Positions 881 through 58,088 of a stretch of 64,000 bases of DNA are shown piece by piece. Location of the stretch: positions 31,868,001 to 31,932,000 of the forward strand of contig OX597823.1 in NCBI GenBank assembly GCA_951406725.2, read 5' to 3'. The position numbers were made by a program, and so were the translations under genes. This DNA is from Octopus vulgaris (taxonomy: Eukaryota). Every line of letters starts with the position of its first letter. Position 1 is the stretch's first letter. The notes beneath the pieces are model-generated. The model did not search any database and was not told the origin of the DNA. It saw only the letters and a program-made list of their open reading frames with translations.

Positions 881-3800
881 TATAAACAACTACACATGAA
901 GTTGAGGGCCCACCAAAGCTTACGAGGGGTAGAGACTAATGACATGGTATGATGGGATAGATCTTGGTTGCAGCCTCTCAACAGAGTAAAAATGGTGTTA
1001 TTAGTTGCAACAGCATCAGCTGTAAGTATTGTAAGTATATAATGCACAGGTGAAATTAATAGTTTGGAAAATTATAATCTGATTAACAAACAACTAATCT
1101 TAGCCATTGAAGAGGTCTTTGTTGCAGCAGCAGTAGCAGCAGCAGCAGTAGCAGCAGCAGCAGCAGAAGACTGGAGCTTTTTAGATTTTTACATTTTCAA
1201 ACTTAAGAATGTTGTGCTATGCAAATGATTTGATACATGGTTCAAATTGTATGAGAAGTTCTTGATTGAAAACATTTTCAGATATAGAAGAAGAAAAAAA
1301 AACTGATTAAAACTCATGATGTTGAATTCTTCAACTTTAGTCTAAAATCAGCATCTTCATCTTCATTCTCTCTCAGATATTTTTTTTTTCTTTACTTTTC
1401 TAGCAGAATTCACAAATATATTTGTACTAAATGCTATCTTAAGGAATCAATTTCTCTTCTGATAAAGAATTAAATCCTAATTAATTTACTGAACTATGAA
1501 GAAGCGTCACCGTTTCTTAATTCTTTAGATCCTCTATTTTTACTAAAATTATATAGTTTTTGTTATTATTGTTCTTATTCTTTCTGCAGCTATAAATAAG
1601 ATCAATGAGTTTAGTGTGTGTGTGTGTGTGTGTGTTTGTGTGTGTGTGTGTGTGTTTGTGTGTGTATGTGTGTGTGTGTGTGAAGAAATTCTATAAATGT
1701 CTTTAACAATACAGGAAAGTAAATCAAATCCAGTATCAACTTGAAGAATGGTAAAGTTTTTAATGCCATGCTTTGATCTGTAAGCATTTTCTTGGCTCTT
1801 TAACAATTTTTCTTTTTCCCTTTTTTTTTTTGCTTTTTCCAGCTAAAGTTAAAATTTCTTGTTTGTCGTTTTGTTTCCTGTTGTTCTTTTTCTTTTTTGC
1901 TATATTGATTTTTCTCCTTCAAATCCTACTTTTCCGTTTATTTGCTGTCATGATTTGTGACAAAATACTGTTATTTGTTAAATGAACTGGATGCCCTCAA
2001 ATCCAATTGTCTTTTATCTTTGTTATATATACAACACACACTCAAGCACATATGTATGTACATACACACACACACGTTTGTATTTAAATTTATTAGAAAT
2101 TTTAAAAGGCAAAACAATCAAAAACATTACGGATTTTAGCTTTGTTTAAATCTGGGTGGGAGGGGAGCTTTAGCAATTTTTTACTGATTCATCTTGGATT
2201 TTTGCTATGAAATCATTTCACTCACTACACTAATTTCTATTAGCTTCAGAGAGAAAGAGAGAGAGAGAGAGAGAGACAGAGAGATAGCAAGATTGCATGT
2301 GTGTAGATGAGGTACTTCATTGTTAAGGGATTGGATAACTAAACATAAAGGTCTTCAGCCTCATATCCAGTGATGGTTATTTGCTTAGAGTGACATTATT
2401 TATCTCCTGCTTGATATTCTCTTAGCATGGCCTCAGCCTATTGGCTACAACAAGTAAAGAAAGTATACTACTGTGCATCTAACTCAGCCATAGGCGAACT
2501 TCTTCGAGAGGTGGGCCAAATGAGACATCACTCATCATAAGGTGAGCTTTACTACTAAAAAATTTCAAGGTAATTTTTTTGTGGGTGTGCCATTCAAAAT
2601 TTGCCATGTCTGATCTAACTGCAGGAAATAGATAACAGATTTTCAATGACTTATTCTTATTCCATACAAATAAGCAGTACTGATTCTCACCTGCTGTTCA
2701 TTACATTTATTAATAGCAATTTTCTGGACATAAATATGTTTCATTGTCCTCTTTTCAGCTACTCCCACCCACCCATATATAATTTGTATTTCCTCTACAG
2801 CAAGACACCTGTGCCAGTTGCTTTACCATATTTTAACCTCTCTCAGCACCTGACTTCAAGCCACCTCCCTCTCTATTAGAAAGCCACTCCATTGAGGGTT
2901 CTTCTTTGTCTTGCAAGTTACTTGGCGACCTCACTAATGTTGGTGCCATGTAAAAAGGTACCCTGTATATTTTATAAAGTGATTGGTGTTAGGAAGGGCA
3001 TCGAGCCATAGAAACCATGCCAAAACAGATAACTGGAGCCTGGTGCAGTCAACTTGTACAACCCATGCCAGCATGGAAGACCGATATTAAATGATGACAG
3101 TGGCAGCAATGGCAGTGCTGCTGTTGCTGCTCCATAACTTACCAGCAACAGTTTTCAGGACATACATATACATTCTAATGTGCACACTCTACACACACGT
3201 TTATCAGCAACAGTTTTGTGGACGTACACATATTCCTTAAGGAAGGATAGGAAAATATTAGATTTATAAGCCCTGAAATTCATGGGCATATGGTGTAATG
3301 TTTAAGAGCATGGGCTACTAACCTCAAGATTCTGAGTTCGATTCCCGGCAGTGACCTGAATAATAATGATAATAATATCGAAAATACCTTATGAATGAAA
3401 ACCCAGGTTTGAAATTTCCCCAAGACACCTGATAAAGGCTGGAGGGTATATGAGCCAAAAACGTGTTAACAACAAACAAGATGAAGACAAATATCTGTCA
3501 AATGTAAATAATGTACATGATTCCTCATCTCTTAAATATAGAACTGCATAATATTCCAGTATAATACTTTGACCATGGCTCTAACCAGATAAATACTGAC
3601 CTTTCCCAGTCAGCAACAAATGCCACACACTTTGAGGTTGGATTTCAATACATTCTTACGCTTTCCCCATTGTTAGCACCAGCCACTATTTGGCTAATGT
3701 CCCAAAATGATTTTTTAATATTTGGCTTTCTTTCATTTAAACAATGCGTACTAATGTACTAACTCAAAGTACATTCATCATCATCATCGTTTAACGTCCG

Positions 3801-4254
3801 CTTTCCATGCCAGCATGGGTTGGACGATTTGACTGAGGACTGGCGAACCTGATGGCTGCACCAGGTTCAATCTTGATCTGGCAGAGTTTCTACAGCTGGG
3901 TGCTCTGCCAGATGAGATTGGAGCCTGGCAGGGCATCCAGCTGTAGAAACTCTGCCAAATTATTTACATTATTTACATTTGACAGATATTTGTCCTCATC
4001 TTGTTTGTTGTTAACATCATTTTGGCTGATAAGCTCTCCAGCCTTCATCAGGTGTCCTGGGAGAATTTCAAACCTGGGTTCTCATTTCTAAGGTATTTTT
4101 CTGATGTTATTATTATTATTACTATTATTATTATTATTATTATTATTATTATTATTATTATTATAAAGAATAAAATATTTTGAATGACACAACAATGCAC
4201 TATAATACAAACAATGGACTATAAGAACTGTTATAATTTAATCATCCATAGTCT

Positions 4255-4294
4255 GATATAATATTTCGGGATAAAAATTCCTTCTTCAGATATC
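4255..4294 (-). ncRNA. Minimal hammerhead motif, inverted partner of 4546-4584
   Basis: Minus strand reads GATAT-CTGAAGA-A-GGAAT-TTTT-ATCCC-GAAA-TATT-ATATC. Confidence 0.72.
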
Positions 4295-4545
4295 CCTAGC
4301 AATTGATCAAGTCGCTGCTATAATCGGTTTTCCAATGGCTTTTCTTTTTCTGGACATAAATATATTTCATTGTCCTCCCACCCACCCATATATAATTTGG
4401 GGTAGCCATGTATTTCCTCTACAGCACCTGACTTAAAGCCACCTCCCTCTCTGTTAGAAGGCTTTTCTATGTTTTTGTTTTTTTCCGGAAAAACAGAGAA
4501 GCCATTGGAAAACCGATTATAGCAGCGACTCCATCAATTCCTAGG

Positions 4546-4584
4546 AATATCTGAAGAAGGAATTTTATTCCGAAATATCATATT
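4546..4584 (+). ncRNA. Minimal type I hammerhead ribozyme motif (core intact)
   Basis: AATAT-CTGAAGA-A-GGAAT-TTT-ATTCC-GAAA-TATC-ATATT: 5-bp stem I, 5-bp stem II, palindromic mini stem III, AUC cleavage triplet. Confidence 0.8.
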
Positions 4585-57427: not shown

Positions 57428-57635
57428 GATCTGACTGCATTTTATTTGGAAGCGGGGTGGATTTCTTTTTCTTCTCCATGCACATACACAAAACAAAGGA
57501 GAAATCTTGAACAGACAAATATTTTTTTTTATTTTGTTGAGAATATAAATAGGAAATAAGATATATTTTTCATGGAATTTATATCTAGTTTGTAAATGTA
57601 TTATTCTATTTGGTAAATTGTGATGCTATAAAAAT

Positions 57636-57641
57636 AATAAA
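57636..57641 (+). promoter_or_regulatory. Candidate polyadenylation signal AATAAA
   Basis: First AATAAA about 210 nt after the stop, followed by U-rich sequence. Confidence 0.5.
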
Positions 57642-57851
57642 GTAAATATTGACTTATGTTTTCTCTCATTTATTTGTCACAAACAGGGTATGTACTCCAC
57701 ATTTAGCCACAAGATTTTATATATATATATATATATATATATAGATAGATAGATAGATATAGATATTGGCACCAAGCAGTGTTTAGGCTACACCAATGCC
57801 AGAACGAGACGACACTGCATAGTGCCAAAGGTCCCAGCAATGCCATCACTA

Positions 57852-58088
57852 TAAGGTACCACACAAATGGAAATATATATAAAAGAAGGATTGAAAATGC
57901 AATTTTAAAGATGTTTATTGACTTGTGGGTTGGAACCTACAATCATGGTTTAGAGGTGAATTCCTATGTGATGGGTGGTATTCACCTCTAAACCATGATT
58001 GTAGCTTCCAAGCCACAAGTCAATAAACATCTTTAAAATTGCATTTTCAAACCTTCTTTATATATATTTCTATTCATGTGGTACCTTA
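57852..58088. repeat. Near-perfect hairpin (~110-bp arms) downstream of the stop codon
   Basis: TAAGGTACCAC...GAGGTGAAT / ATTCACCTC...GTGGTACCTTA. Confidence 0.9.

Follow-up and report, generated by a model that had tools for sequence, protein, structure and literature searches.

The stretch of Octopus vulgaris DNA analysed here (64,000 nucleotides, hereafter the window) contains numerous minimal hammerhead ribozyme motifs, which raises the question of whether these are genuine and which elements brought them in. A sequence-only reading had reported about a dozen motifs from at least six families and ascribed them to non-autonomous, retrozyme-like relatives of Penelope-like elements (PLEs). 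In our view the motifs are probably the hammerhead-bearing ends of six families, mostly truncated and decayed, one of which, family A, would have spread from a tRNA-type RNA polymerase III (Pol III) promoter inside its terminal repeat. The hammerheads themselves were to be expected, and family A is the unusual part.

Four sites in the window passed a strict descriptor, which required the core CYGANGA, a stem II, GAAA, a palindromic stem III, UH and a stem I; 40 dinucleotide shuffles gave a mean of 0.025 and a maximum of 1. Across 800 kb of the genome (G000), sampled as 80 evenly spaced pieces of 10 kb, we counted 13 passes, and the same sample shuffled three times gave 0, 0 and 0. Motif frequency relative to shuffled sequence, a comparison proposed by the earlier reading, is therefore clearly raised, while at the genome-sample rate about one pass would be expected in the window, which is thus only modestly enriched. 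A cross-family MAFFT alignment was uninformative, and a closure test was used in its place on 49 half-motifs chosen without any stem I or stem III requirement: 13 (26.5%) closed with the 3' side belonging to them, whereas among 2262 cross pairings 15 did so (0.66%). Stems I and II pair family-specifically and co-vary between families, and stem III is palindromic. Moreover, intact exact 40-mers of family A number 1165, against 0 for the reversed control. That the motifs are chance matches in AT-rich repetitive DNA would fit the Rfam scan of the window, which returned simple-repeat false matches and no hammerhead, and the fact that only 4 of the 13 listed motifs pass the strict descriptor. In light of the shuffles, the self-closure rate and the 40-mer counts, this explanation is scarcely credible, and we consider a chance origin ruled out for all sites other than that at 12329. 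Cleavage is predicted for dimers only, by way of the palindromic stem III; modelled cofolding prefers dimers by 4-11 kcal/mol, and the predicted folds differ from the active shape.

By a coordinate check in the window, six families (A, B, C, D, F and G) account for 12 of the 13 listed full motifs and for both half-motifs. The copies are as follows.

3237..3269, plus strand: end of the family A parent ORF (last codons, stop, spacer), matching at 97% the end of the ORF in natural copy L385
3284..3359, plus strand: family A tRNA-derived head with A and B boxes, then (AAT)n
3374..3547, plus strand: family A tail, hammerhead 3424-3467, core decayed (G8 and G12 lost)
3959..4108, minus strand: family A tail that forms the left arm of a head-to-head A pair; its hammerhead, 4013-4056, has lost G12
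4164..4345, minus strand: family B end between the two A arms, hammerhead 4255-4294, passing the descriptor with one stem II mismatch
4495..4648, plus strand: family B end with intact hammerhead 4546-4584, head-to-head with the preceding B copy
4754..4887, plus strand: family A tail, hammerhead 4770-4812, second core decayed
7833..8910, minus strand: family G, young element of the Hydra clade, truncated at its 5' side, with a GIY-YIG C-terminus, 3' UTR, hammerhead 7870-7932 and (TA)n end
8910..9398, plus strand: family G truncated copy in inverted orientation, extended at the 3' side; its hammerhead, 9246-9308, has lost G5
12302..12472, plus strand: family E, old low-copy repeat with a first core box at 12329, hammerhead not confirmed
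15241..15454, minus strand: family D, old copy, hammerhead 15343-15377, stem II broken
18693..18809, minus strand: family D, hammerhead 18776-18809, U4C core, G12 lost
19354..19595, minus strand: family F, hammerhead 19427-19520, in which stem II/loop is long and G12 is lost
19592..19659, plus strand: family F inverted stub, hammerhead 3' half 19598-19620
29847..30071, plus strand: family A short copy that begins with the tRNA head (29850-29925), then (AAT)n and a tail with hammerhead 29981-30026 (G12 lost); immediately upstream is a short 3' piece in inverted orientation
46301..46696, no strand assigned: family C head-to-head fold-back, hammerhead 3' half 46522-46538 on the minus strand
55956..56179, plus strand: family C, hammerhead 55968-56012, passing the descriptor

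The reported number of motifs and families is confirmed by this inventory. On the other hand, the motif claimed near 12329 on the plus strand is not confirmed: its second core box gave no canonical hammerhead parse, by eye, in 14 aligned relatives. Likewise, no core motif lies within 57801-58200, around the claimed end of the region at 58088. The statement that core and pairing are kept applies to the families, whose stems pair and whose relatives (in A, B, C, D, F and G) carry the boxes CUGANGA and GAAA with UH, but not to most window copies, which have decayed cores, with only 4 of 13 motifs intact. GAAA, for example, is absent from all four window copies of family A and retained in 11 of 14 copies from an unbiased sample; G12 of family F, lost in the window, is kept in 16 of 18 relatives. 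A repeat finder run on the window was swamped by microsatellites.

Family A is the terminal repeat of a decayed, coding element of the Penelope/Poseidon type, assigned from motifs alone. Its parent has a single ORF with reverse transcriptase (RT), C-terminal GIY-YIG, and DKG and Cys/His motifs, with frames of 569 aa (L368) and 186 aa (L071), homologs at 38-69% identity and a weak RVT_1 match just below the cut-off; the endonuclease piece had no Pfam match. The ORF is followed by a stop, 32 nt and the tRNA-derived head, and then by (AAT)n, an ATG, the hammerhead and, without a break, the ORF start of the next unit. The order endonuclease, head, tail was found in 20 of 20 fetched endonuclease-bearing loci, and head, tail and ORF start were colinear in 5 of 30 junction loci, one locus (L406) being a true head-to-tail tandem; no single copy with a head, the whole ORF and a second head was found. 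As far as Penelope/Poseidon elements are characterized in the sections drawn on (Craig et al. 2021, PMC8557442), the parent of A shares with them DKG, RT and, at the C-terminus, GIY-YIG with Cys/His residues, as well as tandem terminal repeats, inverted truncated copies and one-sided 3' extension. It differs in carrying an A/B-box head and (AAT)n in the terminal repeat, in having no shared T4 run, and in a hammerhead in frame with the ORF N-terminus, a trait also found in homolog P0123. The only in-frame ATG of family A lies 5' of the cut site.

The head, which is absent from the earlier reading, aligned to genuine tRNA genes of the same genome with a best z of 8.1 (tRNA-Arg TCG), exceeding all 300 shuffles, in a comparison covering a few isotypes; its B box falls at tRNA positions 53-62 by hand-counted numbering. 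Neither Rfam (one head) nor default ARAGORN (0 genes in 17 loci) called it a tRNA, and ARAGORN with a lowered threshold gave noise. Exact 20-mer counts rise from 881 for the ORF end to 5148 for the head and 11811 for the tail. Out of 110 copy 5' ends, 82 lie at -7 to +8 of the head, 19 inside it, 3 between -44 and -13, and 6 within the ORF, and in the cleanest, position-ordered set 27 of 36 start at the head; the five sets of ends partly overlap, and a fold-back palindrome blurs those at -7. Copies extending past the ORF end thin gradually, with a mean of about 370 nt in 30 loci.

We then consider terminators. T4+ runs number 34 against 184 expected in 84 kb of aligned family A copies; they occupy 25 sites, none present in more than 12% of copies, with coverage of at least 7 nearly throughout, and no T4 terminator common to the copies was found across the 2.6-kb unit. 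The probability of zero shared T4 in 2.6 kb is 0.003 by base shuffling and 0.04 relative to other long ORFs of the same genome, two of which (1.5 and 0.9 kb) are likewise T4-free; given that the copies share one master, this is a single test of 2.6 kb. The deficit emerges only after private mutations are separated from shared sites: single decayed copies are undepleted (L368, 3 runs vs 3.1 expected; L371, 4 vs 2.5), and codon-level shuffles of such copies show no deficit in two of three. Family G has 15 T4+ runs in 2.15 kb. A metagenome scan yielded eight distant relatives, most of them ending short at the 3' side.

Since the end repeat carries a tRNA-type promoter and the copies share no terminator, the family A element is likely to be read by Pol III at least in part. 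For the short copies this mode of transcription is likely; for the element in its entirety it is possible. Pol III would start a few bases ahead of the tRNA +1 of the head; from the last or a lone repeat this would yield an RNA of about 300-450 nt, copied in trans by the enzyme of the element, and such copying could have produced tens of thousands of SINE-like copies. Starting in an upstream repeat, Pol III could traverse the whole unit, given that the copies lack a shared T4 terminator. A 5-bp hairpin at the start site may let the cDNA 3' end fold back on it, giving rise to the head-to-head pairs, and the templates would be uncut or rejoined RNA, since copies retain both sides of the cut site. 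A bolder version holds that the parent is transcribed end to end by Pol III through the captured promoter, that selection has purged T4 runs from its 2.6 kb, that the RNA is translated uncapped with the hammerhead in its first codons, and that the promoter of the downstream repeat makes the element its own SINE. We regard this version as conceivable, though doubtful. An uncapped Pol III RNA would require unusual translation.

Family A could instead be an ordinary Pol II element, its tRNA-like piece a passenger within the 3' UTR, with the pile-up of 5' ends due to a Pol II start in the terminal repeat or to enzyme fold-back on the small hairpin. A capped RNA would pose no translation problem, a start site within the terminal repeat is described for Penelope and Chlamys-3 (PMC8557442, in part), and the T4 deficit only reaches P of about 0.04 against other ORFs of the genome. 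However, the ends stop abruptly at -7 of an A/B-box head whose spacing is correct, the same start is seen in some copies that have no inverted partner, a 5-bp hairpin would presumably be a weak barrier, and T4 runs are abundant in relatives from other organisms (39 T4+ runs in 8.9 kb of seven elements). We therefore hold a Pol II origin to be rather unlikely. Less likely again is an independent tRNA SINE borrowing Penelope enzymes. Most copies are indeed head plus tail without an ORF, heads are about six times as numerous as ORF ends, and the short copies have the A/B-box head and the 5' ends at the expected Pol III start that define tRNA-derived SINEs. But the coding element itself carries the same head, all 14 head matches in the 800-kb sample have a tail nearby, and no separate lineage sharing only its partner's tail was recognized: tails of the two classes are of similar age, diverging from the majority by 6.0% in ORF-bearing (n=48) and 4.8% in head-start loci (n=37), and they show a frequency gap above 0.25 in one column only, within a variable 9-nt repeat. 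This explanation appears quite improbable, and a free SINE was dropped because the coding parent contains the head.

In between these two in plausibility, and still distinctly unlikely, is that the motifs mark retrozymes replicating as small circular RNAs independently of coding parents. Family C, the sole family with retrozyme-like tandem units, has these in 2 of 14 loci, at a spacing of about 350 nt, two internally deleted two-repeat units of family A (L399 and L404) share one junction, and no coding parent was located in the upstream flanks of C (0/18), F (0/18) or D (0/15). In contrast, A and G are ends of coding elements, copies are mostly solitary or inverted rather than tandem, and those of A begin at a fixed point instead of being permuted. 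Family B is likely the terminal repeat of a coding Penelope-like element, with endonuclease remnants upstream in 3 of 20 copies. Among 14 relatives of family E, 5 are preceded by coding remnants of Hydra type.

[quoted passage not shown] With the clade as partly described in PMC8557442, family G shares the motifs apart from GIY-YIG, an ORF length near 710 aa, the (TA)n ends and a single central base in the stem III palindrome. Identity is 96-100% over its 142 scored matches, of which several contain frames of 717 aa; its ORF had no Pfam match, and four presumed-RNA runs, as assembled contigs, cover the family but show neither starts nor ends. The hammerhead at 7870-7932 has a U4C core and a bulge in stem II; U4C, also present in 6 of 16 unbiased family D copies, is a known natural variant, described as weaker in the part of PMC3088659 used. 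Hydra-1_Obim of Octopus bimaculoides, tabulated with its hammerhead in the same account of the clade, appears by eye to be a family distinct from G, which is very young and has the U4C core.

Considering all six families, two (A and G) are Penelope-like retroelements and the remaining four are likely to be. The core, closure and family evidence support the attribution to Penelope-type minimal hammerheads with palindromic stem III in many families. Their description as non-autonomous does not suit A, G and probably B, and stands for C, D and F insofar as no coding parent was located; similarly, retrozyme-like may suit C, the only family with such tandem units. The general class was correctly said to be known, and the claim that annotation would miss these elements was overstated, considering the published octopus Hydra element and the 30 recently active Penelope families recorded in an octopus (PMC13282606).

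Metazoan PLE hammerheads, as presented in the part used of the main text of Cervera and de la Pena 2014 (PMC4209133), share with ours a short stem I, an extra nucleotide before stem II and the palindromic stem III; there, too, a genome holds many families, the copies are mostly truncated and solitary, and some form close opposite-strand pairs. Here, by contrast, U4C cores recur in the young family G and in part of D, and family A has a tRNA-derived promoter in its terminal repeat, a feature absent from the part of that main text used. Schistosoma Sm-alpha and Sj-alpha (as reviewed in PMC6765202, in part) also have a Pol III-type promoter followed by a hammerhead, but are described as tandem, non-coding SINE-like repeats, whereas in A the promoter and a hammerhead of the minimal kind make up the terminal repeat of an element that codes for protein. 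The TRIMp3 elements Helenus, Ajax and Cassandra (Kojima 2024, PMC10886601, in part) similarly captured a small-RNA-derived Pol III promoter in a terminal repeat; these are non-coding LTR elements whose autonomous partners are argued to need Pol II, while in A the coding element carries the head. Animal non-LTR retrozymes, non-coding hammerhead units from Penelope terminal repeats (PMC7229834 and bioRxiv 10.64898/2026.07.22.740005, both in part), fit family C in size and tandem layout; no cephalopod figures in the parts used.

Capture of a tRNA promoter in a Penelope terminal repeat, as suggested for family A, would be a route to a SINE-like family without a separate origin, and makes the element a testable natural candidate for a Pol III-read, protein-coding retroelement. 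Furthermore, it fixes the order of promoter, start codon and ribozyme, which bears on the role of Penelope hammerheads. Family G, a near-identical set with the U4C core, is suited to cleavage assays.

Hammerhead motifs lie on both strands, between and around the exons of a host gene.

21412..49119, plus strand: ankyrin and patatin exons of one gene (Pfam Ank_2 and Patatin above cut-offs)

By its domains this is putatively a calcium-independent phospholipase A2-like gene, a name we infer, and the lone decayed copies within it are likely inert.

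The hammerhead motifs of the window are real and their class is known overall, with an unusual variant that we call family A; we regard the assignment of the hammerheads to this known class as almost certain. We found 12 of the 13 full motifs listed in the sequence-only reading, and both of its half-motifs, where they had been claimed. The confirmed motifs sort into six families (A, B, C, D, F and G), in agreement with its count of at least six, and its claim that stem sequences are family-specific with pairing kept was borne out by self-closure in 13 of 49 half-motifs, as against cross-closure in 15 of 2262 pairings. 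A strict descriptor gave 4 passes within the window versus 0.025 in 40 shuffles, and 13 passes per 800 kb sampled evenly from the source genome versus none in three shuffles. Extrapolation from the latter figure to the 2.8-Gb genome suggests some 45,000 intact motifs, and the window is therefore only modestly motif-rich. At least five more hammerhead families occur within the 800-kb sample (L094, L103, L127 and L153 are individual loci), several of which combine extended stem II arms with other palindromes.

Two details of the earlier reading were not confirmed. The motif at ~12329 belongs to a repeat (family E, 12302-12472, 48 candidates) of which none of 14 relatives parses, by eye, as a hammerhead, and the end coordinate of 58088 has no support from any core motif there. 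Most window copies are decayed, frequently at CpG sites. GAAA is absent from all four window copies of family A and retained in 11 of 14 unbiased copies; the intact family A 40-mer occurs 1165 times. The motifs lie on both strands, between and around the ankyrin and patatin exons of a host gene, among the following features.

Features of the window
Ankyrin and patatin exons, + strand: one phospholipase A2-like gene, named by inference
36811-38277, + strand: LINE reverse transcriptase frame of 488 aa (RVT_1, E 4e-26), presumably of RTE type
558-935, - strand, the reverse of the main gene's orientation: weak, sub-threshold match to a MACPF D2 domain (E 0.003) in a short frame
42307-42604: array in which a 24-nt unit recurs about ten times
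7833-9398: family G, a 5'-truncated element plus an inverted copy

Upstream of the family A tail, which carries the hammerhead, we found an (AAT)n tract and a head of ~75 nt that aligns with genuine tRNA genes of the same genome; the best match (z 8.1) is tRNA-Arg TCG, a provisional isotype, and by hand count its B box corresponds to tRNA positions 53-62. Some copies have a GIY-YIG coding region 5' of the head, and the order endonuclease, head, tail was kept in 20 of the 20 endonuclease-bearing loci fetched, the tRNA +1 beginning 32 nt after the stop codon. A natural frame of 569 aa contains the reverse transcriptase and a DKG motif, and by its motifs the parent would be of Penelope/Poseidon type. 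Head, tail and ORF start are colinear in 5 of 30 loci, which had been selected for the ORF start, and one locus (L406) is a head-to-tail tandem. In L381, L401, L409 and L423 an ATG within the tail, 5' of the hammerhead, is in frame with the conserved N-terminus, which it does not reach in L404 and L405, both frameshifted; the N-terminus of a homolog (P0123) has that hammerhead-coded peptide too. Other copies of the endonuclease part reach at best 76-92% identity, many of them with stops, so that family A looks dead.

Internally deleted derivatives (L399, L404, also L400, L417, L412 and L413) share junctions ~135-250 nt into the ORF and form short two-repeat units with two hammerheads, possibly retrozymes in the making. 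Other repeats frequently break up the (AAT)n tract or take its place (L076, L087, L084, L089, L086, L424), and two A arms of the window flank a family B pair (4164-4648); the tract resembles a hot spot for insertions.

The anatomy, copy counts and 5'-end pile-up of family A are the established part of the mechanism. Exact 20-mers occur 881 times for the ORF end, 5148 times for the head, ~75 nt further downstream, and 11811 times for the tail. Among 110 heads, taken from five partially overlapping sets (in the random-sample set 10 of 14 head matches passed the filter), 82 of the 5' ends lie at -7 to +8 relative to the tRNA +1 and 19 within the head. Of the others, 6 fall inside the ORF and 3 between -44 and -13, with none between -8 and -18. 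Copies that extend into the ORF become gradually fewer with distance (mean ~370 nt). Tail age is alike in ORF-bearing and head-start copies, with no clear diagnostic changes, so that, judged by sequence, the short copies do not form a lineage of their own. We consider that they probably originate from Pol III transcription, which would begin at the head, the last or lone repeat giving a short RNA then copied in trans; head-to-head pairs may arise by fold-back on a 5-bp hairpin at the start.

That Pol III also transcribes the full-length unit is a more doubtful proposal, less likely than not. T4+ runs, candidate Pol III terminators, number 34 versus 184 expected in 157 aligned segments (84 kb). 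They are spread over 25 sites, none of them in more than 12% of copies, and the ancestral source copy was therefore most likely free of T4 across 2.6 kb. Such a stretch has a probability of 0.003 under base shuffling, of 0.04 given the rate in 14 other long ORFs of the genome and of 1e-5 given that in seven relatives from other organisms, all for a single test on one master; the deficit is absent from the single copies L368 and L371. Transcription from an upstream repeat would give an RNA possibly spanning the whole unit. The weak step of the Pol III reading is cap-independent translation. In other systems this can be driven through self-cleavage, according to PMC13725137, whereas in family A the cut site is located 3' of the in-frame ATG.

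Published precedents include hammerheads within Penelope repeats, whose minimal forms show no cleavage as monomers and weak cleavage as dimers (PMC4209133), retrozymes derived from such repeats (PMC7229834; bioRxiv 10.64898/2026.07.22.740005), the octopus Hydra element with its hammerhead (PMC8557442), schistosome hammerhead SINEs of Pol III type (PMC6765202), tRNA heads inside LTRs of non-coding elements (PMC10886601) and 235 Rfam hammerheads in giant squid (PMC6962438). In the full-text literature searched, mainly open-access, we found no description of a coding Penelope element with a terminal-repeat tRNA promoter.

The earlier label "non-autonomous" is only partly right, given family A, with its coding GIY-YIG upstream of the head, and family G, with 717-aa frames. 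Upstream flanks hold endonuclease remnants in 3 of 20 cases for family B, and flanks hold Hydra-type remnants in 5 of 14 for family E; we did not observe coding remnants in the flanks of C (0/18), D (0/15) or F (0/18). Family C has tandem units ~350 nt apart at 2 of 14 loci, and family D has 22 matches in the 800-kb sample. In some family E copies (L227, L230), a common upstream stretch of ~1.4 kb, with a reading frame of zinc-knuckle-like type, replaces the Hydra remnant of other copies.

For family G, 142 matches were scored, all at 96-100% identity and several within the 717-aa frames, and its ORF bears the Hydra-clade motifs RWK, DKT and CxCX5C. Of 36 motif copies, 35 have CCGANGA as their core, and 4 of the 36 differ at the free position 7; U4C is described in PMC3088659 as reducing activity in vitro, yet it can be enough in vivo. 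An old Hydra-type coding remnant (17368-17619, + strand, 36% identity to the G protein) is linked to no listed motif. A 2619-nt contig (record 1 of assembled run X1) comprises one whole G unit with ends overlapping by 30 nt, which fits either tandem genomic copies or circular RNA. One contig each from runs X5 and X9 (two studies, only presumed to be RNA) covers window 8410-8482, and nearly all of its differences from young G are A-to-G on the + strand (in X5, 9 of 99). The pattern resembles A-to-I hyperediting, with antisense or fold-back transcripts of inverted copies as the substrate, the alternative being a diverged genomic copy.
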